Shown: in pieces, positions 2,700 to 56,307 of the stretch
Numbering within the stretch: position 1 is the stretch's first letter
Layout: each line of letters begins with the position of its first letter
From: Psammoneis japonica
Lineage: Eukaryota
Direction: 5' to 3'
Assembly: GCA_008632985.1 (NCBI GenBank)
Contig: QPGO01000028.1
Location: forward strand, 124,001-180,307
DNA length: 56,307 nt
The notes under the pieces: generated by a model
Told to the model about the DNA's origin: nothing
The model's database searches: none
Seen by the model: the letters and a program-made list of their open reading frames with translations, nothing else
Program-made: the position numbers and the translations under genes

Positions 2700-5600
2700 T
2701 AAGGGGGGGCGTGTCAACAATGTCAATCAGCCTCCTTCCTGTTGGCGTGGCAAGCAGCCGGAGACACACCTCTAGAATCCGCCTGTGGGCGAGGTTTAAC
2801 GGAAATTGTTCAGATTCTGTTGGCCAAGGGTTCACAGATCAGGGACTACATGCAGCAGGTTGCAGGTTTCACCACAATGCAATTGTTCAGTTGCGATTGG
2901 GTTTTGCAGCAACATTGACATGTGTGTTGACATTGGCATCACCAACAGTTGCACGCGTGCACGCAGTTGGCTTCAATGACGTGTGGCTCATGCCCCCTTC
3001 AACGGGTCGCTAATGATCTGAGATTTTGCTCAAATTCTGCATGGCAAAACACATGCTTCACCTGTGGTCTGCCATTTAGATTGCTTTCCCACCATGTTGG
3101 ACACGTGAACAATGTGTCTGCAGCAACATTGCAAAGCTTAAATGCAGACAAATGAGCTCTGTGGCACACGGGAGTGGCAGAAGTCAATTCTTGCACATCA
3201 AAATTTGCCTGCTGCACTCACCCTTTAAATTGCTTGTTGTCCACACATGACAACTAAACAGCGCATCTGCAGCACCATTGCAGATTTCTTTAAATGGGGT
3301 TGCATGAGCTCTGTGGCACGTCAGAATGGCAGAAGTCATTTTTCCCCACAATTTGCACTGCAATGTCTGCTTCATTGGCAATCTTTCCACTTTCCTTCTC
3401 CAACCAACCCACATCATAAAGAGAAAAGAGAAAGCCAGCCACAGCAAGCACACCAAGGGTTGGCCAGCTGACTGGACTTGGCAAAAGAACTTGGGTGTCC
3501 CAGCCACTTTTTGCACAGCTTGGGCTGTCACATCCTGCTTGCTTGAGGTTGAATGTTGGGTTCATGCACAGCTCTTGTGCTCAAATTCTTGTCAACAATT
3601 GTTGCCAAACTTGCTTCCAAATAAAAACACATGCTGAAAGCTCCTTTGTGAGGCCTTGCACAGCACATGATGCCACAAGTTGAAATTGGCAGGCATGGGC
3701 AACACACCTTGAAGCGGCACCCACCGGAGACAACTGGCAGGAATGGGGTGGCACAGGCAGGATGCCATTGCTTCCTTTTGAGTTGAATGCATGTGATCCA
3801 CAAAATGACGGCAAATGATGGTCACACAGAAAATGGAGAGCAAAGACTCAATGATGCCTTGGAGAAAAATGTTGTTGCCAAACACAAAGTTTTTGTGCTG
3901 AAATGAGGGCGTGCCATTGGCAGGAATGGCCAAAATGGTTTTTGAGAACCTGGCACAATGCTGTCTGAGAAGGGCAATGTCAATGCAAGAACAAGGCAAA
4001 CAGAAACACATTCAGGGGCTGCAAGCATGCAATTGATGTCAAAAAGTGTCTGTGCATGACCTCGTTTTGTTGTCAGCAGACACTCAAGCACCGCCAACCA
4101 CCTGTCAAAGTGCACCAACAAAAAGGTTGCTTGATGCTGCTTCTCTTTTGTGCAGAGTGCAACAGCAGCCTGTTTTGCATGCACTTAAAACTTAAAACAA
4201 CAATGCTGGATGGCATGACAACACCAGGCATGGTTTGCAAAAATGGCTGAGGAGAAACAAAAGTTCACCTGCTCTTGCCCTGCTTTGTTGCATGCTTCAT
4301 TGCTGGCACTCACCAGATTTTGCCATCTTGGGCAGTTTGCAAGTCAAAAAGTTGGCTGTGTGTGGGCTGCTCCTCTGCAGCTTGTGATGCCAGTGATGTC
4401 ATCTCCATGCCTCAACACCCAGTGCTGCACAGAGGACAAAGAGATGGTGAGATTGTCTCTCACTCCAGCCTGCTTTGGTGGATTGCAGCGCAATGGCAGC
4501 ATCTGCAAAACACATTTTGGGGGTCTGGATCATCTCCACTGGCTTTGTCTTTTGAGGCCACCATTTTGCATGCTGGCAGCACTCATTGCTCTCCAAGATT
4601 CAAGCACATCTTGCTGCTCACTCATCCTTTCACTCCAGCAGCTTGTTTGACATTGTGGCCAATGTTGTTTGGCCCCATCTCCTTCTGCTCCCCAGAGCAT
4701 GCAGACAAAGCTTTTGTGAATGACAACATTCATGCTGCTGCTCACACCACTTCTCAATTTCAGGATGCAATCAGTGCAAAAATCTCCTGCTCTTGTCACA
4801 GCCAAGTGGAATGATGCCACAGGCACTGTCTTCCTTGCCTTTTCAGCTTTGACCCGTGGCCATGATTTGTGCCTTGAGAAGCAAGCAGAGTTCCAGAACA
4901 TCTTTAATTGCTTGTGCATGAGGAGAGGCTGGCTTCACTGTCAGCCAACCACTTGGCATTCTCCAAAATGCTTTCTTCTCTGTGCCCAGTGGCACTCATC
5001 TGTCTCTGCACATTGCCGCTGCATTGAGCAAAGCAACAGCCAATCAGGCTCACCAAGCCTTTTACCAAGCCTTCTGTTGTGGCAGCTGCATGGGTTGCCA
5101 TCACAGTGCATGGTCCAACACCAAGCTCCTGTTTGTTGAGCATCCTCTTGACCCAATTGGCTGTCAGATCAAAGGGCTTTCAAACAGCCCCGTTGATGCT
5201 CAGAGAAAGCAGTGTTGCCTCTAATTTCCCTGGTGCCAACCCCAGACCATTTCCTCCTTCCATCACCAGCTGTTGTTTGTAAATTCACAATGTGTGTTTG
5301 TTTTTGTGCAGGCACTGTCTGTCAAGATTCCAATTTCTCATTCATGAATGAGTCAGCGACATCATGTGATTTCTTGCAAGGCTGCTGACACAATGCAGAG
5401 CATGTGTCAAAAGAACAAGCGCCATTGTGCTGGAGACTTTTTCATGCTTGTGATGTGGAATCTTTGGTGAAAAGCTCTGCAGCTGGTCATGAGAATGCAA
5501 GCACACATCATGAGCTGGCTGCTCATGAACCTCAGTGGTTTCTCCAAATGAATGCTGTCTCCAGAGAAGCGCAACAGACAGGGAAATCCAAACATTTCTG

Positions 5601-7520
5601 AACAGCAACATGCTGTGTGCAAATTGGATCTGATGAGGGGCAGAATGGTGAAACACAACTGGCTTCATTTGTCATCTCAATTTGGCTGGTCCTCACAGCT
5701 GCATCGGCAGTTGATCATGCAGCACACCTCATTTCTCCAAATCACCAGGTCCAACAATCCATTGCTTCCAAAAAAGAAGCAAACGTGATGTCATTCTCTG
5801 AAAGGTGCTCTGGCAGCTGAATTGAAAATTCATCAACAAATTCCAAATCCCCGCACAATTCTCTCGTGCATTTTGTTTGCTGTCCGGTTGCCTCCCCACC
5901 CCAATCAAAGGTTGCAAATGCCTCAAAGCACCCAAAAGGCTGCACACATTTGTGTTGAATGATTTGACAAAATTGGAGGTGCAGATGTTGTTGCCCTTTG
6001 ATGTTTGTGCTGTTTGGTCAAGCACCACTGTGCTTTAGAGCCCTTGTGTGGCAAGAACATGCCAGCGATGACCACGGTGATTGCTCATTTGCAATTTCAT
6101 CAATGTTTGAATTTGAGCAGCAACCACACATGGAATGCTTGAATCAATCTTGGAGAGAGGACATCAGTGGGTGATCATCACTTGAGCTGTCAATTGTTGC
6201 ACTTTTGCTGATGCCGTTTTTGCTGTCTATCAAAATTTCTGCAGCAGGTGCGCCGACCATGGCAGTGCTGTTGCAAGGTCCAAATCAGAGTGCAGTGCAT
6301 CAGATGCAATCACATTCATTCACTCACCATGTGTGCATGGCAGAAATGTCTGGCTTTTCAAGGCTGTTTTGTGTGAGCAGAAACAAGCACAAATCTGCCT
6401 GTTGGAAATGACTCACCAGTCACCCAAGAACTTGACGCGTTGCACACTGTCATCAAATCAACAGCATCTCACCATGAGTCCTCAACTGCAATGATTGTGG
6501 GCAATCAAAGTGAGCAGCAAAGCTCAACAAGTGCTTGAGACACCAGAAGCTGTTGTGAGCTGGATGTCATGATGGGCTGGGCTTGTCCAACCATGCAGAT
6601 CAGCGGGCATGGAAGAAGATTTGTGGGCAACCATCAGATGAAAACGCAATGATGCTGGTGGCAACAAGCAAGTGTGTTCTCTCAATGACACAAGATGGAG
6701 CTGTCAAATGTTCTTTCCATCATTGCAACTTGTGACTGTTTTGGTTGAAAACAGCTGACAATGTCTTGCCATCAGCTTGCAAACCCGGAGGACAACTGCG
6801 TGATGACCCCACAGTGCATGTCACAACTCAAAGAGTTGCACCTGGCTGGATGGAAGCTCCAGCTGCCCAAATTTCCATGCTTCAACAGATTTGGGCCCAA
6901 TGATGCTTTTTGATTGTTTGGAAGAGCATCATCACAAAATTTGGATGAGAGCACCACTTTTGATGCTCCTGCCAAACAAAGCCGACACTGGAAAACACAC
7001 ACCATGTGCGACATGAGGCGAGCAAGCGCTCGAGCGCAAGCTCTTTGCAAAATTTTCTTTTGTTGTGCTGCTCACAAAATTGGTTGTTTTCAACATCTTT
7101 GTTGTCAGGGAAAAGTTTTCTTGCCTGTTGTTTCAGAAAGAACAAGAGCCAAAAGAGCAGAGGAGAGAAACACATGTGAAAATTTTGCTGCAAAAATCAA
7201 ATGTCTGTGTGAGGAGGAGGAGCTGCTCACTCCCAACCAGCAGTTGGCAGCACTTTCTAAGACAAACCACTTCAAGAGCCCTCAATGACTGGCTTTGATG
7301 TGCATTGCATCAACAACAGATCTCTGAGAGGCACTGCACAACTCTGAGACTTTCTTCCACCACTGCTTCAGTGCGGCGGCAGCGTGTCCTTTGTTTCGCG
7401 CAGTGCGCGCGACCGCGTGCGACGGACAGACTTCAACGGAAGCACATGCACCTGAAGCGCACTAACTCACATTTTTCTCTGACTCAGTTTTCAGTTTTGT
7501 GAAAGAGCGGACCATGACGA
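2700..7520. repeat. TpA/CpG-depleted degenerate repeat block (block 1)
   Basis: Near absence of TA, strong TG/CA excess, only short Cys/His-rich Tyr-poor ORFs. Diverged internal duplication at ~3060-3330. Edges approximate. Confidence 0.7.
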
Positions 7521-10171: not shown

Positions 10172-10289
10172 TGTTGGTGAGTATGTTGTCTGTGTAGAGA
10201 GCATGTAAACACACGAACAGAGGTGCGAATGAGAAGTGCTTGTGACAATCGTTTCAAGCGAACGTCTTCACGGAAAACCGCTCGCCCCC

Positions 10290-13140
10290 TCAGCGGCACA
10301 GTGCACTCTGTTGCAGATGAATGCACAGCGGACATGACATGGGAAATTGCCGCAGAATAGATGCACGCTCACCTTTCAACTCTTGCTCTCTCTTTTCTTT
10401 GTTGCAATGTGCGAAACGACAATCGTGCGTTTCGAGAAATTTCGCAAGTTCGCAAGTGAGAGGAAAAAGGATTCGGGAATGGGTGATCTTCCACGTCATG
10501 ATGTGATGCAACAGCGAATCATTTTGTGGGGACTGCAGGGGGATGCGAAGCCTGATTGCGTCACAGGCAGGGCGGAACCGATCCTTTGTGTTTTTCTTGT
10601 ACAACCTTTTCAGAGTTTGAAAACGTTTTGCGCACCAGTCACTCTTGCTGGCAGCAGTGGCATGTTGGCAGCATGCAAAAGCCGCAATCTGTCACACATC
10701 ATCGTCGTTTTGTTTGCACTGCATCTGATGAGATCTAACAAAATCTCTGAAAACGAACAACCAGAAAAAACATCATCGAATCCAAAGAGTCGTCCCAGAT
10801 GACGTGGCAACTTGAAGTTGTGGTGACGAGAGGCGGGTGAGTTCATTCAGCTCAGAGTTCTCTGGCATTTGCAGCCAAGGAGCGATCCTCGTCTTCGACA
10901 GAATTGCTTGTGTGGACATGGGATGATGTGATTGGATGGCAGTGATGCTGTCTTCTGGCATCCATCAATGCATCCACTGCATTGTGTGGTGTGGATTGTC
11001 AGAATCTGGGTCTGCGCAACAAGTTCTGCCCAGCCACGCCAATGTCCAGCGACGCCAGCAGGGTTCAAGATTTTCTCACTTGGAATCCATGGACAGCACT
11101 GGGTTGAGGTCAGCAACCACCAAGCTGTGATGGCCCTTGATGCTTCTTGTCAACTTGGGCCAACCAACCACATTCCTTTTTGCATGTCAAGAGCTCCTGC
11201 TCTGTGCACAACAATGCACTCAACATTGGGTGCTTTGTGCATGAGGTTTCTGTGATCTGTGTGCACAATGATGCAATGACCAAAGGGGGGGGCTTGACTG
11301 TGCTTTTTTGGAGTCTTGATGATTGCAAGCAATTCTTGCTCTCTGTTGCAATGTTGAGATTTCTGCTTTGCAAAGAAAGCAATGGAAATCTTGTGACATC
11401 TTGTGATGTTGCTGCTCCAAGTTGAAATTTAGATGCACCACAAAAATCAGCACCCACAGAATTGTCCTTTGCATGTGACTGAGTTGGTGCCAGTCTCTGT
11501 TGGCGCCATGGAGCTGCCAAGAGGTTGTGCCAATGTGACACAGCGAGCTGCCATTTGGGTGTTGAAGAAGGGACACTCTCTGCTGTGTGCCAACTTGGGA
11601 AAAAGCATGGCTCCAACATGGTGACCTGCTTCTTTTTGCACTCTCTCTCTCTCTCTCTCTCTCTCTGATTGCCAACAAGTGTGCTGCCCACATCAAAATC
11701 CATGCAAGATGCTTCAAGAGTGTTGCTGCATCAGCTTGTTGGTCATTGCTTTTTGTGCTTGTTTTGCTTTGCCCATTGCCAATCATGCATTCCAGCCATG
11801 CACATGAACTGAAAGTGCAAAAAATGGACATTTCATCAGATTTTGTGCAGTCACCAACTTGGGAACACAATGCTCACACAACCAAAACATCGCACTCTCT
11901 TTTCATTTGTGCATGTTTGGGTGCATTGACCAGACCTGCCAGAGTGCACCAAAACATGCAGTTGCTGTTCATTTCCCATTTTCATTGCCCCCAATGCATT
12001 GCAACACAAAGAGACATTTGTGCAAACATGTGTTGATGAGAAGCTTGCAATGTTGCAAATCAGACAGTGCATTTTTTGCCTCACACAAAGAGCCCTTTTG
12101 AGCTGGCAATGAAATTGTTCATGCCACATGACATGAGGAAATGACTTGCAGTGCTGCGGTGTGCAGAGCCAATCACATGAGTGAATCTCTGTGCAGAGTG
12201 TGACACAAGTCACCATGGTGGTTTGCAGTTGTTTGTTGACAACTTTTTTGCTTTGTGACTGCAGCACAGAAGCAGCATCAGTTGACAATGTGAAGCAGAT
12301 GTGACATGTGTGTCTTCATGGAAAAGATGAGAGTTGTGGTGCATTTCACACTGAGTGTGAACACCTGTTGCAGCACTCATTTAATTTTGCAGACATCTGG
12401 ATCCATGTGACAAAGAAGAAAATGACCATGCAGGCCAACCTTGATGTGGCAGATTCAACAGTGTCATTTGTGTGTTGAATGCTTTTTTAGAGCAGGGGGT
12501 CAAAATGGGCCGAAAAAGTGTGCCAAAACGTTGCGATTGAACACTGCTGAAATTGGCACAAGTTTGCTGTGGTTGTTGACCTGAACAAAAAAAATTGGCA
12601 CCCAATGACCAAGCAAAATGTGGCTGTTCCAATGGCATCATTTCAATCATCACAAGGTGGAAAACAGCCACAGACACATGTGTCATTTTCATTTTTCAGG
12701 GTGCACCATTTTTCTTGTTTGGTGGGAGTTTGTGCTTTTTGTTTTGAGGAAACGTTCAGCATGATTTGCTTGGAGTGTGGACGAGGCATTTAATTTTTAA
12801 TGCACCTGCTTAAGAAGAGTGCACATGAGTGAGAAGAACACCAGACAAACATTGACAAAATGTGTTCATCCATGTGTTTTCTCGCACCAGAGCAGCTGCG
12901 TGTGCCGCGATTTTCTGCCGTCTGCTGCAAACTCATTTGCTTCTTGTGGTGCACCCCTCTTCCACAGATCATCTCATCCTGACACTGCCTCACAAGTCTC
13001 TGAGATTCACAACTGCTGTACAAACGTTGCGTGGTGTGTGACACATTGCATTTGCGCTGTTTGCAGTGTTTGCTGGAAGATGTTGGTGACACTTTGTTCA
13101 TTTTCTTTGACAGTCATTCTTGTTGACAACAATGAGCGTT
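10290..13140. repeat. TpA/CpG-depleted degenerate repeat block (block 2)
   Basis: Manual count: one TA (11430) in 10861-12360; CG rare in the core. Confidence 0.75.
11641..11666. repeat. (CT)n microsatellite
   Basis: Uninterrupted run of about 13 CT units. Confidence 0.9.
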
Positions 13141-15155: not shown

Positions 15156-15559
15156 TTGGAGCGATTGCAACGGTGAGCAATAAAATAAGAGAGCTAATGT
15201 CACGCAAACAGCTGGTTTTGCCCTTGCGTTCAGAGGATGCTTTCACCGGTCTTTACACCAGAGACTTGACGCAGCACCTGACTGCTCCGACTATTTGCTG
15301 CTTGGCTCTAGAATAGTGTCGTGAGGACGTTCCTTAACCAAGGAAGCAAAACCGAAATCAAAATCAATTTCGATTTTGTCTCAAAAGCTAGCCCGTCTGC
15401 TTGCCGCGCAGATGAGAACAGAAATTCCAGCAATGCGTTTATTCTTTAATTTCTACATTGCACTTTTGGCAGCATAGACATGAGAAGGGGAATGCATTGA
15501 GTTTCATTGTCAGCAGCACATCACGTTGTCGGTGTGGAGAGCATGGCACATGGGTGGCT

Positions 15560-15818
15560 GGCCTGTTCCAGCTCCAGGTGTCCCACACAGGCGTGCGATC
15601 CATCACTGGCCCATTTTTGCATTCAGCACAATGAACTCCTTCAAAATCTTTTTTTTTCCCAAATCGACGGGTGAGTGCACATGAAACTTTTATTTTTTAT
15701 GTGCAGTCACCTTTCAATTTTCAAAACGATCAAATTTGAAGGAGTTTAATGTGCTAAACTGCACAGAAAATTGGCCTCTCGCATGATGGATTGCAGATCA
15801 CCTGGGCTGGAACAAGCC
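15560..15818. mobile_element. MITE, family A, copy 1
   Basis: Termini GGCCTGTTCCAGCTCCAGGTG ... CACCTGGGCTGGAACAAGCC; alignable by eye along its length with 50882-51115. Confidence 0.75.
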
Positions 15819-32834: not shown

Positions 32835-32838
32835 GACG

Positions 32839-39077: not shown

Positions 39078-39261
39078 GATGGATGCGTGAAGCGGTGGTG
39101 AGTTTCTTCCCTAGTGAGGGTTTACACCATGCACAAAGGATTGGCGGCTTTTCCCTGGCAAGGGTTTTACGTCGATTAATGAGTCAAGATGTTTGAGCTA
39201 GATCACTGATGCAGCATTGGGTCGAATTGTGCCTTACGAGTCAGGTACATTTCGAGGGGAC

Positions 39262-39484: not shown

Positions 39485-39585
39485 GACGTTTTGCAAAAAA
39501 AAAATCTCAAAAAACCGCGTGCGTCTTCGAAATCATGTTTCAAGTTTACCGGTCTGCTGAAGAAACTGAAAACAGAGCCATCCTC

Positions 39586-42205: not shown

Positions 42206-43800
42206 TCCACTGCATTCGCCTTGTCCATTCGCAGATGCACTCAACCGAGCGGCGTTCTTGCAAATTTGAAAGCTGTGCTTTGCAAGGAACGGGCCCGACA
42301 GTTTCCAATGTTGTGCGCAGGCAGGGGGGTTGCTGAACGGACAATGCTCTGGATGCCTTTGAAACTGACATTTTCCAAGTGGGAGACCATCAAGGAAGGC
42401 AACAACCATTCTAACAACATCTCAGGTTGACCGCAACCATTGCCGCGCCGCGAAAACCGACATGCGATCGATCGCGTGGCGCGCGCGCGTGCGGCTCGGC
42501 TGTCGGTCGCTCATGCGTGCAGGTCTTTCATTTCACAGAGAGTGAAGGCATCGCCCTCATCGCATCTCTTGCCTGCAAAATTGTCGGTTCCATACAAAAC
42601 GTACAGTACAAACATTTGACAAAGAACGAAATGACTGATTCAATTAAGAGTGGAGAATGGGTGTTATGTGGTGTTTCTATTGCCTTGCCAGTCAGATCCT
42701 TAAACACTGTAACATTTAAGCAATTTTTCGTTAAAAGTCGAGCGCACCGAAAGACCTCGGCTATACATGGCATACGACTCATGCTACAGTACAAATTTGA
42801 GAACACCTGGCTTTGTCGCGCACCAAGCTTTTTCGAGTTCCAGGTGCGGAAAAATTTTCCCTTCCTGCCTCGTTTGCACCAGATCAAGTGGAACACACAG
42901 AGAAAAGTGATGCCGCTCGCAGTCTCTGTCCTCTCCTTCTCCGACGAAAACAAGCGTGTACCGTCATGGGAGGGAACCTTGCAAACTACCACTGATGTCT
43001 TTTGTTGATTGCATTTGTGTCGTAATCTTTCGCGAGGATGTACAAGTCGTGGTCGATTGTGTAGAATTCTACTTGCTCTTGTACAAAATCTGCCTTGGGC
43101 GCGTGAGCTATGTCGCACAGCACTACTCTCTACGGTAATTTGACGTCATTTAGGGGAGCCAGTCATCCGCCATGCGCGAATTCTTGCAAATTGATTTGCC
43201 ATTTGTAAATTTGTATGGCAAATGCCCTCTTGGCACATCCTTGGGGCATGCATTTCGCGAGGATGATGTTTTGCATGTCGAAACGACCGCAAGATGAAGT
43301 CAAAACCAATCAGATCGAACCTTTGTGCGATGGTTGGTCCTGGTTTGCAAACATTTAACAACGAGAACCCCTCTCATTTCCTCTCTTTTCTACATACTAC
43401 CATTTTCTGAGATCGACTGATGAAGCCTCCTGCATCAAAAACCCCATAAAACGTCAACACACAAGAGACAACAACACCAATAGCGAACGGTAAGCTGAAG
43501 CTCTATTTTCAGAGATTTTGACTGAAGATTGCCACAGAAGTCGTCCAGAGTGCTATGTTGGATGTTTGCTGACAGCAGAGTGGACGCTGTCTTTAAAGTC
43601 TAGTGGATTCATCCTTGTATATGGTAACAAATTCTTCATTCGTCTCACTTATTTTCCCTCAATTGTACACAGACTACCAATAATTCAAGAAAAAGCATAA
43701 CAGCAGTATCCTGGCCGTGGGCTAGCAAGAAGCATACAACGTAGTAACAAGAACAGCTGACTTGTGACAATATACGAGGCGCGTCAAGAATACAACAAGG

Positions 43801-46800
43801 ATGAATCTCATTTTCGGAACATCCTTCTTTCTATTTCTCAACCTACTCATCTCGAAGACAACAAGTGCGACTCCTAATTTGGATCCCTCTGGTGATACCA
43901 GCGATTCCTACGAGAAAAGGCCATTCTCTACGGTAAGTCTTCCTCCAGCTTTGTACACCACGCACAATGTATCCATCTCCACTCATCTGTTTCCGCTCTG
44001 GCTATCAGCATATTGTTCCCTCGGAAGACGCATCAGACGCCAAGGAGGAGGATCAGGATTCTTCCGTTGCAACACGACGTACCGGATGGGAGAACCGCGT
44101 CATCTTTCACGGCACCGTGTGGTACGACGACAACGCTAATAGCAGAATCGACGAAGGAGAGGAAGGCGTGCCAGGCGCCATTATCCAACTCTACCGCACA
44201 TTCGGCTTCATCGATCGCGATCCGCAGCTCGTCAAAGCCACAAAAGCCCGTGGTGATGGGACGTTCATAATACTCTTGCAAGAGAAAGAAATTGTCAATA
44301 AAAACAAGTACTTCCTCAGGTTCCTTCATACCAACACTGATACCTACAAGTTTGCGCCCATCATAAAAGGTGGCGACAGTCATGTGAACAATCAAGGAGG
44401 AGACACTGTCCCGAAGACTTTGGTGTACGGAAAAACGTACCAGGTCGATGCGGGGCTCGTTGTAAGGGAAGGAGTCGTATTCTACGGTCGCGTGTGGCTC
44501 GATGCAAACCGAAACGGAAGGATCGATAGACAAGAGACTGGGTTGAGAGGCGCTAATATTCATCTATTTCATCGCGAGTTGTCAGGCAAGACTCCAAAGT
44601 TCAAGCTCATCAAGAGTGACAGGGCTCTCGGCGATGGCACATATGAGCTCCATTTGAACAGAGTTCCTGGTGGCAAATACTCTTTGAAGTTTTCCGGTCA
44701 TGACAAAGAAAAGTATGTTTTCACATCAAGACTGCCAGGTGGAGATAATCATGTCACGGCGAAAGGAAGCGCAAAACTGGAGAAAGTAGATGAAGGCAAG
44801 CGCTACAACGTAAACGCTGGAATAACTTATAAAACTCCGGTCTGTGGGGACCATGTGCTCTTCGACGAGGTCACCAAGACGCCGCTGACTGGGTCTTGCG
44901 ATGCGTACGACAAGCTTTACAAGGACTTGTGCCCGCCCGTCGACACGAGCGTTGCCAATCCTCAGTATCTTCCTCCTGGCGGCAGCAGCCCCACCTGTCC
45001 TGGCTATTGCTGCGGAAACTGGGGCTCTGGCGGGACTTGTCCCATCTCGTGGCAAAATAGCTGGCGGCATGCGTTCCCAGGAGTGATCGTTCCAGAATGC
45101 GACGGCAAGGAAGATCCTGGGGAATGTGAAGTCGTGTTGCTGAGAGACAAAAGGAATGCAGCTGGCCTCCCTTCCACCTCATGTTCTGTCGGGGAGGGTA
45201 ACTGGATCTTTCCATCTATCTCGTGCTGGACTGGCAATGACTTGACGAGTGAGGTTCGAGTGGGAGTGAACACAAAGGTGACTTTGTGCTCCCATGCTGG
45301 CGAATGCGCGAATGGCGGTTCCACATATACCCGAACGAGAACCTCTGGCCCAGAGTCGGTTCCGGTCTCTGGTCTTTCTGAGCTGCGCGTCGAGTGTGTT
45401 GCTAATAACCCATGTGATGACCGTTTGTTCTTTGATGCGGTGAACAAGATGCCACTTACCGGGCCTTGCAATGCGTACGACAAGTTCTACAAGGATTTTT
45501 GCCCGCCAGTTGACACGAGCGTCGCCAACCCTCAGTACCTTCCTCCTGGCGGCAACAGTCCCACTTGTCCTGGCTATTGCTGCGGATCGTGGGGCCAAGA
45601 CGGGACTTGCCCAAACTCATGGCAGAACAACTTGCAGAAAGCACATCGAGGAGTAATCGTTCCGGCGTGCGATGGCAAGGAAGAGCCAGGTGAATGTGAG
45701 GTCGTGTTGGTGAGAGATGAAGGGAATCATGCTCGCCTGCCTTCCTTGTCATGTTCTGTCAAAGAAGGTTACTGGTTCTTCCCATCTATCCAATGCTGGA
45801 CTGGCAATGACTTGACCAGTGAGGTCCGTCTGGGAGTGAACACAAAGGTGACTTTGTGCCCACATCATTGCGCAAGTGATGGCGGAACCACACATACTCG
45901 CACGAGAATCTCTGGCCCCAAGTCGGTTCCGGTTTCTGGTTTTTCTGAGCTGCGCGTTGAATGTATCCAGGAAGAACCCTCACCAGCTAGCTGCAAGCCT
46001 GATAATTCGTTGCTTCTCTTCTCTGGGCATGACATGGCATCTTCGTTGATGTTAGGGGAAGTCAATGTAACGTGGTCGCCCGCCTTTGTGTTTCACAAAC
46101 ACGATAAAAAGCTAATCTGGTGTGGTGATTACGTGTACGATGTCTTTATTGACTCAACTGGAGCTTTCGCCTTCGCTGCCACCAACGCAAGCTTCCCAAA
46201 GCTCCTTGAATTGGCAAACAAAGACTACCAGTATCATGTTAAACACTACGAGACACAAGACACAACACTTGCAACTTCCCTGTATCCGGGATTAACTTAC
46301 AAGATCCTTGTCACGGCACGAACTAAGACGGGTTTGGAATCCTTTAATCGCGATTTCGCCGAGGTTCAAGTGTCGTGGACAAACCCGGTTTTACGGGCCG
46401 GTTTTCAACGTGTTGTTAATCTTCCTGAACCAAATGGAGATTTCTCTGCATGGTTCGGAAAGCATGGGGGTGAGGATGTTGCCCACTTTCAAGGGGAGGT
46501 CCCTGATGAACTTCGAGACCTCAAAAAAGGGGATCATGTCTACATATCGGATGCTGACGGGAGGACAGAACTAGGACTGGTTAAGCAACTGCAAAATGAG
46601 CTCCTTGGTGGTCTGAGTCATGTCACGCTAGTCTACTCGCCTTCTGGCATGGATGGCATTTACGAGGAGCTTGACTTTGGCGCGGACGTTGCCAATGCCG
46701 ACGACTTGGATATCGATGACTTGGTCGACTTCAGCCCGGAAGTCGAGGAAATTGCGAGCGACGATGCGATCAGAAGTCTTGATGAGCATGTGCTGAAGCA

Positions 46801-48853
46801 CCTTTGCCTTGTTGCTTTCCCGGATAATGTTGATGATTGTTATTATGAGATTGTCGGAGAGGGGAGCGGGCGGCAACTAGGATGGGGACGACGCTGGTGG
46901 AGAAAGGTTAAGAAAGCAGCAAAAAAAGTGGTGAAAACTGCTCTCAACGTTCTGCAAGGCAAGTTTTCAGGAAGCGCGAGCTTCAATATCATTGATGTTG
47001 AGAGAGGAGCAAAGGCGAGCCAACATGACGGACTTGCAGAAATTGGTGTGAAGGCGGAGGTGTCCGCAAAGGTCCGAATGAAGATCAAGGTGTCAACCCT
47101 CCCACCAACCGCTGGCGGTTCCATTATATTATATGGTGGTCTTGGAGCTGATGCCTATATTTTGTTACGAGAGGCAGCGGTCATGAGACTGCAACCCAAA
47201 CCATTCGTGCTTTTCAAGACCAAGTTTGAAAAAGTGGTTCCTGTTGGACCAGTTCCTGTTTTGATTACTGTTAAGCCATCCCTTGCTGCTTTCATTGAAG
47301 CAGTTGCTGCCGTCGAATCCCAGGTATTTTCATCAATGTCCGCCGGCTGGGATTACGAATTCGGCTTCGCGGCCGGAAAGGAAATGGAGAAACCAAAAAA
47401 TAAGATTGTTGAACGTAAACCGCGTGTTAATCCGGAGTTCAACATGCGCTTTAATGCAGCAGCGGAAGTGGGTGCAACTTTTACGTTGGACGTTCGCTTT
47501 TACAAAATCTTGCAGGCAGTCGCAGCTATCGACCTGGGTTTCGGGGCCGAACTCGAAGCTGGAACCAGCCTTGAAGCAGCAGCGGTGACACCTCCCTATT
47601 TCTATACGCTTGACAAGCTTGACATTGATTTCTTCGTTAGAGGTCGAGCTGGTTTTGGCCTCAGCTTTGACATTTTGGATACAGTGAAGGATATTGCTGG
47701 AATAGACGATGATTTGATGGATGCGATCGAATACCGTCTCCCATCGCTACCCTCCGTGCCAAATGCTGTATCACCTGCGCTTGAAAAAGCGGTGGATATT
47801 GCGCGTAGTGTCGACGACTTGCACTCCAAGTTGGTGGATGTTATCGAAGAAGCAACCCAGCTTGTGCTTGAGGACCTTGACAGTTTCACAAGAAATTTTG
47901 ACACCGTCCAGCAGCTTGTAAGGGCCTTACCGGATATTATCGATAGGGGAATCAGACAGGCTCTGGATGACCTTGGTCTGCCGGAACTAATGGGAATAGG
48001 TGTCGAAGCCATTCTCGATTTCATTGATTTGAGGAAGGTTTTCAACGATGCCGTTCAACAGGTGCTGACCGCTGAACGCCCTTTTAGAAACATTGAAGAC
48101 AGTGACGTCGATGCTGCTGTCGATAAGGTGCGGTATGTGCTCAATGAAGCGGCAGGGATTGCCTTGAAAAGCAAAGACTTTTCTTTCAAGGGACTGGACT
48201 TCAGTGTTGATGACCTCCTTGCGTTGAAAGGCCTAAAAGATCCTTTCAAAGGAGTAAGGGGAGCACTGAAGGGCCAACGGTTGGATATAGACAAGGGATT
48301 CTCATTCGAATTATTCTCGGCAGATTATAAATTGCTCAGATTACCAAAAATCGAGTTGGTTCCATCTCAGCCTTGTGAAGGAGATAACAACGTGAGCCTA
48401 ACTATCAAGACCAATGTCACAAAATCTGGCGGGATACTCTCGGGAGGTATCAAGGAGGGCAAGTGGTTCGAGAACTTTCATGGAAGTCTTTCGGCCATTG
48501 GAGCCGGTCCGTGGAGGCTTGGCGATAGATCCAATCTAAACTCCGTAACCGCGACTTTGCCCGGTCGCAAAGGTCTTTACTCTCGGTACAACATGCCCAG
48601 CGGAAGTATCTACTTTCGAGCCACGCCAAAAATTCCTCCCATTCCGTATGTCATGTTGGTCAAAAGAGAATTCTCGGACATGTACGAATGCTGCGAGGGT
48701 GTACGACGTTGCCCGAAAGCTCCAATTGGTGATGGCCCCCCAGCAAGCCAGAGTGCCGACTGCGAATGTCACAGCAGCAGGCAACGTCAGAGTAAATTTT
48801 GCTGGATCCCAGATTCATCGTGCGACCCAACCATATCACGCATAGGCTACTAG
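43801..48853 (+). CDS. Large secreted protein (~1658 aa): signal peptide, two SdrD-B/CnaB-like domains, two Cys-rich ~190-aa repeats, FN3-like region; exons 43801-43932, 44009-48853
   Basis: Signal MNLIFGTSFFLFLNLLISKTTSA; in-phase intron GTAAGT..CAG 43933-44008; GTVWYDDNANSRIDEGEEGVPG and GRVWLDANRNGRIDRQETGLRG with matching D/NAG ends. Confidence 0.85.
44843..45967 (+). repeat. Intragenic tandem duplication, period ~570 bp
   Basis: Units start at 44843 and 45413; both encode CPPVDTSVANPQYLPPGG.SPTCPGYCCG. Confidence 0.9.
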
Positions 48854-49097: not shown

Positions 49098-50522
49098 CAA
49101 TTGCCGGCCGGCCTCCCACTTCCAGTATATTCCTACAGCCTCTACGGAGACTTCGGATTATTGTATGCTAAATTTTACGGGGCGGAGCTTTTTCAACGCA
49201 TGGGTCCAAATCTGTATAATACTACAAATTGCAAGACAATTGCGCGATTCACGTGCCCGAAGGTGGAATATCGTTGCCCGAAGCAACATTCTCCCTTCGC
49301 GCAGATGTCAATTCTACGTATGATGTGGTATCAAAATTTTCATTTTGGTCGTCTAAATCGTCCCAGTCATTTCATCAAATGACCTTGTGGTACTCTCCTA
49401 CGTGATCTACGCAAATCGGAGCTTTGGGCTGGCTGGTACATTTTCTACAGGCTCTACGCGCGCGAAGCTCGAATTTCAACAATCACCCTTCGGGCACGTG
49501 AATCGCGCAATTGTCTTGCAATTCGTAGTATGCGCATGCACCGTGTTACAGCAGGGCCCTAGGGCCCTGCTGCATCTTTTCAAAAATCAACAATCAACAT
49601 CTGTCGGTGTCATCGATGCCATCCACACCTGTGCGTTGTAAGGTATGTCGCAATGGTGTGTGCCTGCTTTTTCTTGCTCCTCTTGTCGTTGTCAATGTTG
49701 GCTTGATCTGCCGTTCTCTTCTTTGGTGCGTGCTCTTTTGTCGCTTTTTCTGATTTTGCCATGAGCTCCGTTCTGAACGCTGCTTTTGCACTCCCCATCG
49801 CTCTTTGGTCTGTAGTTTGCTTTCTGCATTTTTGGTGTTCGGCTTTGGCTCGGGCATGGACAACCTTTTTCACGAGATTCTTCCATGTGTGCTTCAGTGA
49901 TGCAACTGTCATCCGTTTGCTGCTGTTCTCTTGGGCTGTTTTCAAGAAGGAGCGCCACAAAGCCTTGTCTCCCATTGCGGCACCTTCTCCATGCAGAAGT
50001 CAAGAAAATCATTGCCACGATGTTCAAAAGCTTTTGCGTCACAGCATCCCCGCATCTGACGCAACAGTGTCTTTGCAACTGCAAAATGAGGTTTGGAAAC
50101 CAAGGTGAGCCAACCCATGTTTCGACTTTGTTCTCCACGTGAATGACAGTTGCTCACACAATCACAGTCCAATGTTGCTTTGTTGTGTGGCTCAGTGCGA
50201 TCAAGATGAGAGAAAACAACGAATGCGTCCGATTGTGAAAGATGGAATGAGGAGCCAGCTGTCACGTGCCCACAGGGTTCTGTCACAGTGCTGCAAATTC
50301 ACAAACAAAACAAAGTGGCTCCGATGGTGCTTGCATCCATTTCGTTGTTCCGTTGACAGCAACATCGATGCTGATTGTCAAGTGCCATTGTGGTGCAGTG
50401 GTGTGCAGAAAAAAATCAAAAATTTCGAAAAGCTCCGCCCCGCAAAATTTGGCATGCAAAAACTCAAAGTCCCTGCTGCCGATGCACAATCATGCTGAAA
50501 ATGGGAGGCCGGCCGGCAACTG
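49098..50522. mobile_element. DNA transposon relic with ~100-bp imperfect terminal inverted repeats
   Basis: CAATTGCCGGCCGGCCTCCCA...GGGGCGGAGCTTTT on the left vs its reverse complement at ~50428-50522. No clear TSD. Confidence 0.7.
49222..49528. mobile_element. Nested Tc1/mariner-type MITE, ~42-bp TIRs, TA TSD
   Basis: TA|CTACAAATTGCAAGACAATTGCGCGATTCACGTGCCCGAAGG ... CCTTCGGGCACGTGAATCGCGCAATTGTCTTGCAATTCGTAG|TA, one mismatch. Confidence 0.85.
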
Positions 50523-50881
50523 ATCTGACGCTAATTGAACAAGGACGAATCATTGAAGCCTGCGGCGGAGCCCACGCAGCCCTGCCTGTCCTGTTGTCCT
50601 GTTGTTTGACCATGTGTCCATGATGTGAAGATCGCCGGCCTGTCGTCCTCCCTCTGTCCGTCCATCCACGTGACAGTCTGGTGGTCTGGCCATCTGTTGA
50701 GCAGTCCAGTGGTGTGGCATGTGGTGTCAACCAATTGTTCTTCCTGCTCGGTTCATGCTGCCATAATTTCCAATTGCACATTTTCCACAAGACAAGGATG
50801 ATTGTTCTTCACCCCATTGAGGACTGTTTCTGATCTGAGACTGGCAGAGTTCAGCTGAAAGTTTTTGTTCGCCCGTCTCAT

Positions 50882-51115
50882 GGCCTGTTCCAGCTCCACC
50901 TGTCCCAAAAAGGTGTGAGATCCATCGCTGGCCCATTTTTGCATTTGGCACAATGAACTCCTTCAAAATTGATGTTTCCCAAATCATTTTTTTATGTGCA
51001 CTCACCTTTCAATTTTCAAAATGATCAAATTGAAGCAAATCAATGTGCCAAGCTGTGCAGGAAATCGGCATGTGTCGCACAATGGATTGCAGATCACCTG
51101 GATTTGGAACAGGCC
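50882..51115. mobile_element. MITE, family A, copy 2
   Basis: Termini GGCCTGTTCCA ... TGGAACAGGCC; homologous to 15560-15818. Confidence 0.75.
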
Positions 51116-53419
51116 TCCTCTCTGTGGACAATCAGAATGGTGGCTTGCTGCAGGACAGTCTGGGCATGGAAAGGTGGGTCACACACACATTCAAGCAACC
51201 CAGAGCTGGAGCTGGCCTTCATTTGACACAACCAAATGGCACAAAGAGGGTGCAAGAGAGAGGCTGTCTGATGCAGTGCTTTTTTTTAGCTGACGCTTGT
51301 GGGTCATTTTCTTTTCTTTGTTGTTTTCTCCAAGTTGTCAAGTGCTTTTGGAAGGTCTTTCCATTGGGCGTCAAGCCATTTTGCAACAATTCCTCCCTGG
51401 TTTGCAACATCACCACCTTGCATGCAATGCCTGGCCAGCTTGTCTTTGGCACAGCCAGGACACTCAATCAACATGCCAAAAGCACATTGCCAGCTGGAAG
51501 TTGCTTGGTCAAAGCACACAAACACAAATTGTGAACTGCTGCACAACAGCAGCCCACAGAAAGAGAAAAGGAGAAAGAGCAAAACATGAGAGTGCTGCTG
51601 GAAAGATGAGCAAGAGCAGCCACATGATGGCCAACATGCCAATGCCAAAGTGCTTGGCAGTGCTGGTGAGCAGCACTGCAAATCAGCTTCAAAACACCTG
51701 TTTGCTGCCAAAGCACAGACACTTCTGGCTGGCTGGTGCCATGCTGTCTGGAAGCGTCTGACAACTTTTGGGGCTGCAAGCAGTGGTGTGCTGAAAAATG
51801 ACATGTGTTCCAAGTCAAAAATGACACTGGCACAGCCTTCACTCAGTTTCTGAGCTGCAACCAAGCTCTCACCATCAAAAGAACAGATTCATTTGAACAC
51901 AGGAGTTTTGCAAGACTGGCAAGACTCACACCAGCATTGAAACACTGCTGTTGTTTTTGTGCTGTCAATGTTTTTCATTGTGACAAACATTGCAACACAT
52001 TGGATGACTTTTTGCAAAAATCTTGAGGACTCGCGCACCTTTGCTGTTTGGAGATTGACATGGGGCATTTGATTGCAGTGTTTTTCACCACATCCATTTC
52101 TTCAACTGCAGCAGAGGGAAATGCAGGGAAGGCTTGTTCCAGACTCAGGTGTGCACAAGCATGAAAAAATGACCATTTTTGCATGAAATGCAAAGTCCAA
52201 ACTCACTTTGCAGTGCTGCACCATTTTCAATTGCTGCAAAGGTTCACAGACAGACAGTCACATCCTGTGGCCACATTGTGCATGGCCCTGCATGATGTGG
52301 CCAGACATCTCAACACAACAGTGAGAACAGAGCCAGGATCAAATGCAATGCAGTGTGGCAATTGACACAAAAAACACATCTTTTCATTTGGAGCATTGTC
52401 CATTGAGGTGAATTGCATGGCACAGAAATGACACCCATCAGCGCCAACTCAAAGGTGTCTCTTTTCTGCATGCAATGTTGGTGCCATGTTCCCACACTGG
52501 ACAGCAGTGTCTTTGCATTGCCTCTTCAATCACCAATCACCGCAGAAAAAAAGAAAAGAAGTGCATGTTCTAACTTGGAGCAGCCCATGCACTTGCACTG
52601 TTGTTGCCACAGAGCTGCTCACACCAATCCATGTGTTTCACAGTGAGCAACCCCCTTTGACCTTTGGCTCAAAGTTTTGCTGAACAGTGTGGCACACTTG
52701 CCTTTTCTGCACAAGAGTGAGGCAGGCTGTTGCCAAAATGTGGCCCAAGCTTTTCTGCCCCTGTTGCCGGTGAGTGCCCTTGATGCCACCCATGGCAAAG
52801 AGACCTGAACAATGTGCAAATGTCTTCATCTTAATCTGCTGCATCTGTCTCTCATTGCCATGCACCTGTGTGCAGGTGCCACAGTGCAGAGGTTTGAAAA
52901 CCGCAAAGCTTCTTGCTCACGTGTCACCATGCAACAGCTGGCACAGTCCCAAGGACAAAATTTTTTTCCTCTCATCCTTTCATTGAGGCAGACAGCTCCA
53001 TCTGCTGCTGCCGTCATGCAAGAAGGAGCAAAAGATGGTGTAGAAAAAATTGTTGGACAAGATGAGAGACAGAAACGGCAGCAGCAAGAGAGGAACAGAA
53101 AAAGAAATGAAAGTGTGCTCACTGTCGTTTGAATCAAGCCATGCCAAATGGTGAAATTGAAAATCAATGGGACACGTGCATGACAGATTGGTTGACTGCA
53201 AGAAAAAACACAGACACATGTGTGCTCCAAAGTGTTGCAAGAAAAACAAAACTCTCACTGCTTGGGTTTGGAGTCAGTGGAATCAGCACAAGATCTTCAC
53301 CACCGGTGGACAAGTGCGCTGTTGAACTGGCCTTTGCTTTTGTTTCCTGTTCTTGTTTCAGCTTTGACATGATGCATTTTGATTTCTTTCTTTTTTTCTT
53401 GCAACTGTGCAGTTGCAGT

Positions 53420-54175
53420 CCACACCCATGAATGCAAAATGGGCTGCCAAATTGTTTGAAATTGGCGTTGCTTTTCAGAAAAAGGTTGTTTGTCCCCATC
53501 CCTGGGAAACTCATGTTGTGAAACTGCTTGACTTCAAGAAGCTTCATGGATGTTGTCAAGTTCCCTTGATGCATCCAGTGAGCATCTTTCAAGTGTTGTG
53601 AAGTTGTTGTGATGTTCCTTGTTTCTAATGGGTTGCATCTTTTCAAATCTCACGCATCATTTGCATTTCTCTTGAGTCTGATTCTTGCATCAACACATGG
53701 CCAAATCCTGAGCTCAGCATCTTGGCATTGTCTCAGCAGCAGGAAAAGCAAGCATTGGACAAGGGACACCCATCAAAACTGGACAGGGAAAGAGTCAAAA
53801 TTTTTCAGATTTTGGGATTTGTCTGTGATGCCAACTGGTGCAGTTGTGTCAGAAAGAATGGAGCTAAATGCACTCCTTGGAAAACCCATCTTGAAGAACT
53901 GATGGAGTTTAAAATGTGTCATGGCTGTTGTCAAGTTCCTTTCAAATGTGAGGCAAGGACCAGCAGTGACAAGAGAATGCTGTGATTGTGTTCAATGCAC
54001 CTCCTCTCTTTCTCTCACTGCTCACAAACACTTGGCCAAGTGTGCAACTTGGGCATTGGGTGCAAACTTGGTGCGGAGAAAGGAAAGCATTGGATGAGGG
54101 ACATTCACTGAAATTGGACACAAGAAAAGTCAAACTTCTGCAAGATCTTGGCTTTGTCTGGGAAGTTCAATGAGG
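53420..54175 (+). pseudogene. Decayed helicase-associated (HA) domain gene, at least two HA repeats
   Basis: WETHVVKLLDFKKLHGCCQVP, SKLDRERVKIFQILGFVC, WKTHLEELMEFKMCHGCCQVP and QLGHWVQTW...KLDTRKVKLLQDLGFVW match the HA pattern W..L..[FY]K..HG.C.VP..LG.WV..L..LGF.W. Intron-like interruptions start GTGAG. Confidence 0.75.
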
Positions 54176-56307
54176 TCCTCCAAAGAAATTTGACATTGAA
54201 GAGAATGTTGGTGGCCATGCAGATGGGAACATGCATCTGAGAGGCTCCTGCTCCTCAAGCAATGTGCCAGCTGCAATTGTCACTGCTGCTTCTGGAGAAA
54301 GAGTTGTGTCATCATGCTCTGCTTTGGGTGAGGTTGCATGGTTTCCTCCAAGATTCCAAGGGCCAAAGCCTTGCGAACCTGTTGCTTGGGTTCTGCCACA
54401 TCTTGAGAGCCATCCACACAATCAAGAGATGGCTCCACTGGCTTGTCCTCCTCCACAAGAAGTGAAAGTGAGTGTTGCTGCCAGCAACAGAGGACAACAT
54501 TGCTGCTGGCTGTCATCTTGTGCACCTCTGGGCATTGGAGTTGCATCCATTTGCATCCATGCCATGTGAGGATGCAACAACGTCAACCTGAAGTGAGGCA
54601 CGTTCCTCCACACCATTGCAAAGACCCACACTTGGATCAAGAGCATTCTTCAATGCCGCCATTTCACGGCAAATCATCACAACGGATGGTTGATCATGCT
54701 GTCCATGACAGGCGTGGGCTGTGCCAGCAAGAACCCCCTCCCTTCAAAAAAAGGCGAGGTCTGGAAAGGACGCAATGACGCTGCACAATTTCGAAACGGT
54801 TTGAAGGCAGAGCCACCGGCGACGTGTGGACGTGCTTTTTGACATGCACGCACGCACAGAAGCTGCTTCCTTTTCGCCATTTGGTGGAAGTGTGTGGCAA
54901 GATCGATGGGCAGTTGCAACACGGAAAGCAACCTCTGGCTCAGAGCTGGTCATGATGGACCACTTCACGCTAGACCAAATGCAGACCACGCTGGGCAGCA
55001 TCATGCACATTCACACAATCACTTGTGTTGTTTGTGCATCTGCAAACCACACTTGAATAAAATGTGTCCAACGGCCAAATGAGAACCACTGTGAAAACCT
55101 GCGAGTCACTCTGGCAGAGCAGCTTGCCTGCTCTGCCAGAAAAAACATGTGGATTTCTACGAGACTCGCAGAAGGCACAAAAAATCAGCAGCCAACGCGA
55201 GCAGCAACAGCCATCACTGCAATTGCAAAAACAAGAAACACACTCTCTGCAATGTGGATGACATGGCAAACAAGTGGAGGAGCAAGATGCGTGGGGCACT
55301 GGACTTCTCATTTTTGCACCAGTCAAGCGTTTGGATTCATCTGAAGGTGCCAAGAATCGCTTTTTGCCTTTGCTCAGCTCTGACACGCGATTTGATTCAA
55401 TCCATGTGGCCAAAGGCTTGGTTGATTTGTCAAGGAAAGCAATCAATGAGTCAATTGTCACAGGTTGTTGCAGTTGGTTAGAAGTTCTTTGCTTGTCAAG
55501 CAGAGAAATGGCTGGCAGCTGCAAGATGGTGAAAAATTTGGTGGACAAGCCAGCAGGAAATTGTTTTCAGACAAAGTGGTTGTTGGATGATGTGCTTGGT
55601 GGAAAGCCTTTTACAGAGAAATCCATTGCGACAATTCTTCATGAGGCAGAGGAAGTTGGGTCAGTGATGAAGGCACAGAAGACCAAAAGACGTCTTCGTG
55701 CTTGGGAGATTCAACCTGTCATGAATTCTCCTTGGAAAAAACAGCCAAGAACAAGCCTGCATTCTTCTGTGTCTTAATTTTGTAACAACATCTTTTAATG
55801 GAATGAAGTGTGCATTGTACAAAGATCTTGCAACATGTTTTCCTCACACACTTTGTGCTAAATTGCCAGGATGAATGAGTTGTGACTAAGGATTTAAATC
55901 AGCACAGTCAACAGATTGGTTCCACCCACATTGCATCCCACCAAACAGGTGACTGTTGTCCCATGGTGGGAGTTGATGGCAGAGTTGGTTGCCCTGCTGT
56001 GACATTGGCCACTGCTGTGACAGAGGCAATTGCAAATTCTGTGACAATTGGGACAAATTGATTGGGGGCACTCTTGCAACAGCCCCAGCATCCATCTCAC
56101 ACATCACATGACAGGAAGAGGACTTGTTGATAAACACAGTGATGGCACCAACTGTGAACAGACTTTTCTCAAAGTCAGGATCCACAGAAGCAGTCCCGGT
56201 CAGAAACGAGCGCTCCAAGCAAGTTTCGTGACTTCCTGAGTGCACCCAGAGATGTCGATGGATCACCACACCTGACATTTTTTTGGGATGGGTTTCTGAG
56301 ACATGGC

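Follow-up and report, generated by a model that had tools for sequence, protein, structure and literature searches.

Blocks of TpA-free, CpG-poor DNA between the genes of a diatom: a probable footprint of TpA-specific hypermutation

What could remove one dinucleotide almost completely from long stretches of a genome while the genes beside them keep it? The question is raised by 56,307 nucleotides of the diatom Psammoneis japonica (GenBank assembly GCA_008632985.1, contig QPGO01000028.1, positions 124,001 to 180,307 of the forward strand; hereafter 'the window', numbered from its first letter), in which blocks nearly devoid of TpA and poor in CpG lie between genes of ordinary composition, and in which a Ty1/copia long terminal repeat (LTR) retrotransposon appears to have been caught part of the way towards the same state. 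We argue that the blocks are very probably the saturated footprint of a local hypermutation specific to TpA, combined with CpG decay. With less assurance, and for the interpretation as a whole, we think it rather likely that these non-genic, partly transposon-derived blocks were rewritten by a local process acting on TpA at the level of DNA. All composition results come from this one window and are expressed as observed/expected dinucleotide ratios (o/e).

Two compartments and the direction of change

A two-state hidden Markov model (HMM), whose input was the count of TA per 50-bp bin, recovers all seven of the TA-poor blocks that an earlier, sequence-only reading of the window had described, with limits within ~50–360 bp of those first proposed; its TA-poor segments total 32,500 of the 56,307 bases (57.7%), in agreement with the statement that such blocks cover over half of the window. 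In the HMM segments TpA o/e is 0.02–0.13 in the seven blocks, as compared with 0.48–0.77 in the genes between them. With the limits of the first reading, all blocks other than the composite sixth (29949–39260) have o/e values of 0.03–0.07 for TA, 0.15–0.40 for CG, 1.76–2.18 for CA and 1.76–1.95 for TG; the corresponding values are 0.15, 0.67, 1.48 and 1.53 in the sixth block, which holds the copia element, and 0.59, 0.99, 1.19 and 1.20 in the window outside the blocks, where TA content is ordinary, as had been reported. The enrichment of CA equals that of TG in every block, each being nearly doubled, on both strands. The same division is apparent in 500-bp sliding windows (0–4 TA and 0–7 CG in blocks, 13–42 TA and 20–40 CG in the genes between), and the distribution of TpA o/e, as checked within this window, is not unimodal: 64 of 111 non-overlapping 500-bp windows lie below 0.30 and 47 at or above it, with two between 0.30 and 0.40. 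The longest TA-free run measures 2,342 bp (25661–28003), against a maximum of 685 bp when the same 1,135 TAs were placed at random 1000 times, and the earlier count of one TA in 10861–12360 proved exact, the sole TA between 10736 and 12382 sitting at 11430. G+C content barely differs between the compartments (0.47–0.48), ranging over 0.45–0.51 in blocks and 0.41–0.48 outside. The tetramers most enriched in blocks are TGCA, CACA/TGTG and GTGC/GCAC, and the TAs that survive there, mostly within TTAA, CTAA and TTAG, may be new C>T products.

Two parts of the first description need amendment. Block edges had been called sharp, and some are (a TA-free run at 22549–23846 is followed by 18 TAs in 140 bp), but the right edge of the sixth block is a gradient, with TA density recovering from ~38900, ~350 bp before the 3′ LTR of the copia element, and with no step at 39260. 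Nor is the sixth block a single unit: it is a composite of an old, saturated part and the younger copia element, which is TA-poor and still CpG-rich (block 6a and the copia entry of Table 1).

CpG has been lost from the same blocks (o/e 0.03–0.4, against 0.82–1.26 in gene segments) in a separate and slower process, nested within the TpA-poor DNA and lagging behind the loss of TpA. Among the 500-bp windows, 22 of the 64 poor in TA keep a CpG o/e of at least 0.6 and only one of the 47 with normal TA has a CpG o/e below 0.5; the copia interior and the intervals 10251–10900 and 49651–51000 are TA-poor yet have CpG values of 0.6–1.0. Where the CpGs have gone can be seen by comparing copies. Block repeat pairs differ by CG<->TG/CA changes, and of the variant places found in read contigs (40 of 174 are listed, 34 of them in copia, and contigs drop rare variants), 16 of the 34 in copia have CA or TG in the window copy and CG in nearly all other copies, which is private CpG decay; the proposal that CpG drains into TG and CA is thereby upheld. 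This part of the change would be ordinary deamination of 5-methylcytosine in methylated transposon DNA. Diatom transposons are CpG-methylated, in Phaeodactylum in a DNMT5a-dependent manner, according to the available part of the source (PMC9998398). As in the CpG decay of methylated transposons, the loss of CpG to TpG and CpA is confined to transposon-derived DNA; the difference is that CpG decay alone cannot remove TpA, and that CpG loss is here the slower of the two.

The direction of the TpA change can be read from the copia element. It is flanked by GACG on both sides, carries a purine-rich tract before its 3′ LTR, matches the Pfam family RVT_2 (E 1e-10) and aligns over its full length with ~1,900-aa diatom-type copia polyproteins at 42–65% identity; a Pfam scan found no integrase or gag family in it, as expected for a heavily mutated copy. 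Its interior has a TA o/e of 0.21, with ~160 TAs lost, and its open reading frames (ORFs) encode 0.41% Tyr, against 3.65% in 40 homologs, with Cys raised 2.5-fold and His 1.3-fold. At the 34 columns in which at least 70% of 30 homologs have Tyr, the element retains it at three (the tyrosine of YVDD among them) and has Cys (TGT/TGC) at 14, His (CAT/CAC) at 11, Phe at five and Ala at one. The most conserved of the other residue classes are for the greater part kept (W 23/25, D 39/41 and G 56/63 among them), I (13/24) and T (22/35) less well. In all, 134 of 651 conserved columns differ from the consensus: 26 by TA>TG, 19 by TA>CA, four by other A>G or T>C changes, seven by changes of CpG type, eight by other G>A or C>T changes and 35 by transversions, while 35 need two or more changes. 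The transversions are probably ordinary divergence from homologs that are 42–62% identical. Because 25 of the 34 conserved Tyr codons are now TGY or CAY, the low TA content of the element and of the blocks is the result of mutation, in the direction TA>TG/CA, and not of native composition. Related elements look different: TA o/e is 0.48–0.93 across 79 metagenomic loci of related copia elements, with no 1-kb window below 0.25, and Tyr makes up at least 2.6% of each of 240 homologous polyproteins, in a sample that favours intact elements and says nothing on the absence of the signature elsewhere. The best match in a protein-database search for paralogous copies of the element was only 65% identical.

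The two LTRs of one retrotransposon insertion are identical when made. Here the 5′ LTR lies inside the TA-poor domain and the 3′ LTR outside it, and they differ by 12 substitutions and one 3-bp indel. Eleven of the 12 substitutions set TA in the 3′ LTR against CA (eight) or TG (three) in the 5′ LTR and the twelfth sets CG against TG; there is no other type of substitution, and no transversion. A second comparison has the same form: the interval 50428–50522, inside block 7, shows six TA<->TG/CA differences from its inverted partner outside the block, 49098–49192, and the TAs that are legible in the alignment stand on the outside copy. We therefore consider it probable that the process acts in situ, in a position-dependent manner, on elements already in the genome.

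The outcome of the change is symmetrical between strands. At 56 sites of inferred TA loss, 29 became TG and 27 CA, in 27 strand runs where 29.0 are expected, and neither the 5′ nor the 3′ neighbouring base is associated with the outcome at these sites. Seven repeat pairs in blocks show TG<->CA doublets at 44 of 261 difference events, as compared with one of 105 in a control repeat internal to a gene; such doublets are the product of an ancestral TA or CG having been resolved independently in each copy. In block 3, for example, the arms of an inverted repeat (18843–19188 and 17159–17493) differ by six TG<->CA doublets and 14 CG<->TG/CA changes, and in block 5 five tandem units of ~248 bp (27083–28329), 92–98% identical, differ mainly in these same two ways, so that the array must have arisen before the decay by mutation or while it was under way. 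When losses of TA and CG are simulated on the normal part of the window, CA/TG o/e rises to 1.84–1.88, and 1.81–1.84 is observed; the combined losses thus account quantitatively for the CA/TG excess, as expected if TA and CG both drain into TG and CA. The Tyr codon changes, the LTR differences and the repeat-pair doublets together sustain the view that a TpA>TpG/CpA process, caught half-way in the copia element, has reached its end state in the blocks.

The summed contig depth of the copia element, 1,000–2,600, is not a copy number and points to tens of copies. Among its listed variant places are three CA>TG doublets and three at which the window copy keeps a TA that others have lost. A change of TA to TG or CA makes no in-frame stop (TAA becomes TGA or CAA, TAG becomes TGG or CAG, and TAY becomes TGY or CAY), and for this reason dead elements keep long ORFs; a mutated copia copy could still be propagated, perhaps in trans.

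A number of observations weigh against this interpretation or restrict it. The two-process simulation misses an excess of GpC (1.32 observed, 1.05 simulated) and a deficit of ApT (0.82 observed, 0.96 simulated), as well as an excess of AA/TT (o/e 1.24–1.30 in saturated blocks), deviations that stem from source DNA of another composition or from a third bias that depends on context. Only ~61 G>A plus C>T variant places were reported over the 20 kb compared, against the ~160 TAs lost from the copia interior, and other copies have TA at only two of the 34 listed places; much of the TA loss thus seems to be common to copies of the family and may predate the insertion. Taken by itself, the LTR pair shows only that the TpA rate per base is at least ~36-fold that of other sites, and the polarity of its differences is taken from the coding region; one of these sites has in the 5′ LTR a CA that makes the 6-bp terminal inverted repeat of the LTR complete, and there the polarity may be CA>TA. 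A multi-copy element of 911 bp, resembling a miniature inverted-repeat transposable element (MITE), is untouched although it lies inside TA-free DNA; either it is very recent or location in a block is by itself insufficient to trigger the mutator. Finally, what we propose on enzyme, lesion and chromatin state is inferred.

Candidate mechanisms

The process turns the self-complementary step 5′-TpA-3′ into TpG or CpA through A>G or T>C, on either strand equally and at each site independently, and it comes to a halt within ~100–300 bp of adjacent genes. Together with the slower CpG process, it drives DNA to a TA-free, CG-poor, CA/TG-rich end point at unchanged G+C. As the mechanism we propose that an enzyme would deaminate the adenine that follows T to inosine, in untranscribed or heterochromatic DNA, and that the inosine would be copied as G, as has also been proposed for the signature in Bigelowiella natans. 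Adenine deamination is our leading idea for the chemistry, though a tentative one, and targeting to silenced chromatin would be plausible.

The alternative that survives best concerns the chemistry alone. The mutable base at TpA could be a symmetrically modified thymine in silent DNA, of the 5-hydroxymethyl- or 5-formyluracil kind or the base-J kind, which occasionally pairs with G and so yields T>C; TpA and CpG would then both be palindromic 'epigenetic' dinucleotides that decay, as 5-methylcytosine does at CpG. Dinoflagellate 5-hydroxymethyluracil and kinetoplastid base J are enriched at T before A, and 5-substituted uracils mispair with G. It would suit this idea that both depleted steps are self-complementary pyrimidine–purine steps lost in the same domains, and that outcomes are strand-symmetric and independent between sites. 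The footprint is, however, the same for T>C on one strand as for A>G on the other, and former TA sites appear in the contigs as clean, fixed substitutions and not as a mixture of reads, such that a modification would still need to mutate. No sign of such a base in diatoms was found, in an analysis that made no search for one. We regard thymine modification as unlikely, though less so than the explanations that follow.

In repeat-induced point mutation (RIP) of ascomycete fungi, C>T changes, mainly at CpA, create TpA and stop codons and lower G+C. A homology-triggered process of this kind, which would recognise repeats through pairing and mutate them in the sexual cycle, perhaps by way of diatom DNMT4, would resemble what is seen here as a defence-like, DNA-level hypermutation by dinucleotide-specific transitions; such hypermutation destroys transposons and leaves behind, between normal genes, blocks with sharp limits and a composition of their own. 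The diverged repeat fragments common to blocks, the multiple copies of copia, and the sharp edges and all-or-nothing look of the blocks would all fit, and diatom DNMT4 enzymes, whose function is not known, group with fungal RID according to the available part of PMC9998398. The direction of change is nevertheless the opposite one: RIP makes TpA, whereas here TpA is destroyed by A:T>G:C changes, TAA and TAG are removed, no in-frame stops arise and G+C is unchanged. No repeat dependence was seen in the window, where the 911-bp element of very high depth is untouched and two equally repeated LTRs have been treated differently, and the main target in B. natans is single copy (10.64898/2026.01.13.699255, in the portion available). 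A RIP-like process therefore appears improbable.

Edits by APOBEC and ADAR enzymes are strand-specific and leave both LTRs of an element alike. The blocks might nonetheless be insertions of retroelements whose RNA or cDNA had been edited before integration, whether by an ADAR/ADAT-like A>I or an APOBEC-like activity, and the apparent sharing of copia TA loss among family copies would fit a source that was already changed; the resemblance is to hypermutation of the deaminase type that depends on context, strikes LTR retrotransposons and ends up fixed in the genome. The outcomes here are strand-symmetric and interleaved (29:27), which excludes strand-specific RNA or cDNA editing and long single-strand patches. 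In addition, reverse transcription should have left the two LTRs identical, yet they are unlike at 11 TA sites, and DNA other than retroelements is also affected, with MITE-type relics and non-coding DNA up to the gene edges equally depleted. We consider pre-integration editing very improbable.

The possibility of an artefact can be judged from sequencing reads. Run X1 holds 66% of the sampled words of 30001–40000, and its contigs of 1,477, 251 and 1,283 nt, at a depth of 61–64, cover the TA-free interval 29917–32866 with 0–2 differences and no branching; X1 depth on unique genes is ~58, and by read depth this interval is now single copy. Such unbranched contigs at single-copy depth exclude an assembly, consensus or base-calling artefact. 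A misread modified base would give ~50:50 branching between CA and TG at each site and shatter the contigs, which is not seen and which argues against that artefact too. Run X1 is probably the sample behind the assembly and hence no independent isolate, and a gap of estimated size in block 5 (239 N, 28666–28904) points to a scaffolded short-read or Sanger assembly. Two further runs, X2 and X3, gave no cover over 29716–39039 and were not used as evidence either way.

That no mutation took place, the low TA being native composition, the result of selection or a sequencing, base-calling or assembly artefact, is scarcely credible: TA is the most avoided dinucleotide in many genomes and the confirming run probably shares its sample with the assembly, but conserved tyrosines have been replaced by Cys or His with destruction of the protein, copia relatives are not TA-poor, and the contigs are long, unbranched and at single-copy depth.

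Blocks, elements and neighbouring genes

Table 1. Features of the window (o/e, observed/expected ratio; strand given where assigned).
Feature	Position	Strand	Characteristics
TA-poor, CpG-poor block 1	2851–7450 (2700–7520 in the sequence-only reading)		17 TA, o/e 0.05; CG o/e 0.23; CA 1.85, TG 1.84
TA-poor block 2	10251–13100		10 TA, o/e 0.05; CG 0.38
TA-poor block 3, CpG loss patchy	15501–19950		20 TA, o/e 0.07; CG 0.40
TA-free block 4	22551–23800		0 TA in 1,250 bp; CG o/e 0.25; TA-free run 22548–23847
TA-free block 5	25551–28900		4 TA, o/e 0.02; CG 0.15; carries the longest TA-free run
Young, unmutated MITE-like element, 911 bp	29034–29944		Perfect 21-bp terminal inverted repeats (29034–29054/29924–29944); CGCC on both flanks
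Saturated TA-poor block 6a, left of copia	29945–32838		Windows TA o/e 0–0.15, CG 0.04–0.35, last window 0.80
TA-poor segment including copia	30001–38900		From the two-state HMM
Ty1/copia LTR retrotransposon, mid-way mutated	32839–39484	+	LTRs, flanking GACG, RVT_2, three broken ORFs
copia 5′ LTR	32839–33058	+	4 TA, o/e 0.33; 13 CG
copia 3′ LTR	39262–39484	+	15 TA, o/e 1.03; 15 CG
Extra small TA-poor patch (HMM)	41951–42550		2 TA, o/e 0.06; CG normal, 1.15; at 5′ end of ORF 41429–42409(-)
TA-poor block 7, runs past window end	49651–56307		49651–55750: 16 TA, o/e 0.04; CG 0.31

The view that the blocks are repeats can be kept only in part. Diverged repeat fragments are common to blocks, which supports it; on the other side, few block ORFs resemble anything in Pfam, the interval 29917–32866 is single copy today, and the young, multi-copy MITE-like element has not been mutated. 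Stop-free stretches of at least 70 codons are numerous in the six frames of the blocks (205) because TGA is the only stop remaining, and of the 121 that encode ~90 aa or more, 119 have no Pfam match and two have sub-threshold matches, to RT_RNaseH (E 0.0018) and HA (E 0.00035). The RT_RNaseH trace, a weak one, lies in block 2 (11153–11428, minus strand). A tblastn search of the window with 16 copia polyproteins gave 34 matches, none outside 33000–39300.

The HMM segment around the MITE-like element (28901–30000) has o/e values of 0.77 for TA and 1.04 for CG. Its summed contig depth is ~4,300, against ~58 for unique DNA, which is a rough guide and not a copy number, and no ORF with a known domain was found in it. 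An old copy of one of its ends lies in block 7 (52133–52203) and is diverged, with five CG<->TG/CA differences and one TA<->TG/CA difference. Similar 'CTGTTCCAG' ends occur at 50881–51119 and 15559–15822.

The normal segments carry genes for a mitochondrial carrier, a chlorophyll a/b-binding protein, a GH28 hydrolase, FG-GAP proteins, a kinase fragment and a 1,628-aa SdrD_B-domain protein. The best named relatives of the mitochondrial carrier are those of the diatoms Thalassiosira, Skeletonema and Cyclotella, at 45–48% identity, and no close relative was found among the named matches. Block edges lie ~50–400 bp upstream of start codons and ~100–800 bp downstream of stop codons, and the normal compartment looks like a set of transcription units plus one divergent promoter region (42551–43966). 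Block 1, for instance, ends ~100–170 bp before the ATG (7619) of the mitochondrial-carrier gene, and block 2 begins ~50 bp upstream of the ATG (10204, minus strand) of the chlorophyll a/b-binding gene. The left ~600 bp of block 2 have normal CpG (windows 10251–10750, CG 0.94 with TA 0.09). Directly upstream of the chlorophyll a/b-binding gene, the interval 10251–10900 is TA-free with normal CpG, and the presumed promoter of this probably highly expressed gene accordingly sits in TpA-depleted DNA. CpG is likewise partly kept in the left 1.3 kb of block 7 (windows 49751–50750, CG 0.64–0.71 with TA 0–0.04), a block that the HMM interrupts only by a 150-bp segment (55751–55900). The small TA-poor patch coincides with the start of an ORF whose first ~160 residues lack Tyr and contain many Cys and His; it is probable that the true start of the gene lies further in and that the part upstream is TA-depleted non-coding DNA left open for want of TAA and TAG.

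Some further observations concern the same segments. A contig of run X2 skips 76 nt at 46225–46300, with ends CT..AC that would read GT..AG on the minus strand; the skip falls within the uninterrupted plus-strand ORF of 1,628 aa (43967–48853) and represents a spliced antisense transcript or, alternatively, an allele with a 76-bp deletion. Run X2 may be an RNA library, to judge from its very uneven depth; no record describes it as such. A 45-bp inverted repeat, 98% identical, lies downstream of this large gene (49219–49263 and 49487–49531), and a 111-bp self-complementary stretch (20042–20152) stands just outside block 3, upstream of an FG-GAP gene.

Known systems and a possible genome defence

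A full-text literature search, with most subscription-journal papers outside its range, returned no paper that describes depletion or hypermutation specific to TpA in diatoms. Among the texts that we found, such hypermutation is described only in a preprint on the chlorarachniophyte B. natans, cited here from the part of its text available to us (Mettrop et al., 2026, bioRxiv 10.64898/2026.01.13.699255). In mutation-accumulation lines of that alga, 231 of 302 nuclear mutations fell in two integrated viral regions, and 230 of these 231 were A>G or T>C, those on TpA, at a rate of ~6e-7 per site per generation, which exceeds that in the remainder of the genome ~1000-fold. The TpA mutations arose in only some lines, in silent integrated viral DNA. 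The B. natans genome further contains 124 clusters (of at least three 1-kb windows) that are poor in TpA and rich in CpA and TpG, with a Rho of 0.45 in the region derived from a nucleocytoplasmic large DNA virus, and a DNA adenine deaminase resembling ADAT2/3 was proposed as the agent.

As far as the available text of the preprint allows a comparison, the likeness to our window is close. In both cases the changes are almost only A>G or T>C, at TpA only, with TpG or CpA resulting according to strand; they are confined to regions that contrast strongly with the rest, rated here within one 56-kb window; and they leave TpA-poor, CpA- and TpG-rich clusters in which transposon or viral domains and ORFs that cannot be annotated abound. 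The systems differ in that ours is a diatom (Stramenopila) and B. natans a member of the Rhizaria, and in that a fossil footprint is seen here whereas de novo mutations were measured there. Depletion is also deeper here (TA o/e 0.02–0.13 over 58% of the window, against the Rho of 0.45); the targets identified here comprise a copia retrotransposon and relics of MITEs, no viral genes having been found in the window; block edges adjoin genes; and the loss of TpA is coupled to that of CpG, a term that, like 'diatom', does not occur in the available preprint text.

Several practical consequences would follow. In TA-free DNA, which lacks TAA and TAG, gene finders are likely to call spurious ORFs, and transposon annotators to miss relics. 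A bimodal TpA o/e is a cheap test that can be applied to all published algal genomes, and, because the block edges lie near coding regions, the signature may serve as a map of silent versus active DNA drawn from sequence only. The footprint also leads one to expect in nature an enzyme, strictly specific for one dinucleotide, by which A (or T) is edited within double-stranded genomic DNA, and such an enzyme would be of interest for base editing.

Diatoms are among the most important marine primary producers, and a TpA footprint in one of them moves a phenomenon otherwise described, to the extent of our search, in the one chlorarachniophyte preprint towards a widespread eukaryotic genome defence. 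At its furthest, and as a speculation that we put forward with considerable doubt, diatoms may possess a defence that edits DNA, is targeted through chromatin and turns every TpA of silent DNA into TpG or CpA, the same system as that of Bigelowiella and an old counterpart of RIP throughout the stramenopiles, alveolates and Rhizaria, which would have shaped half of some algal genomes. A copia family that is still multiplying, in a form already largely purged of TpA, might then be escaping the mutator by losing its target dinucleotide, a route that would be open to it because the change from TA to TG or CA never creates a stop codon.

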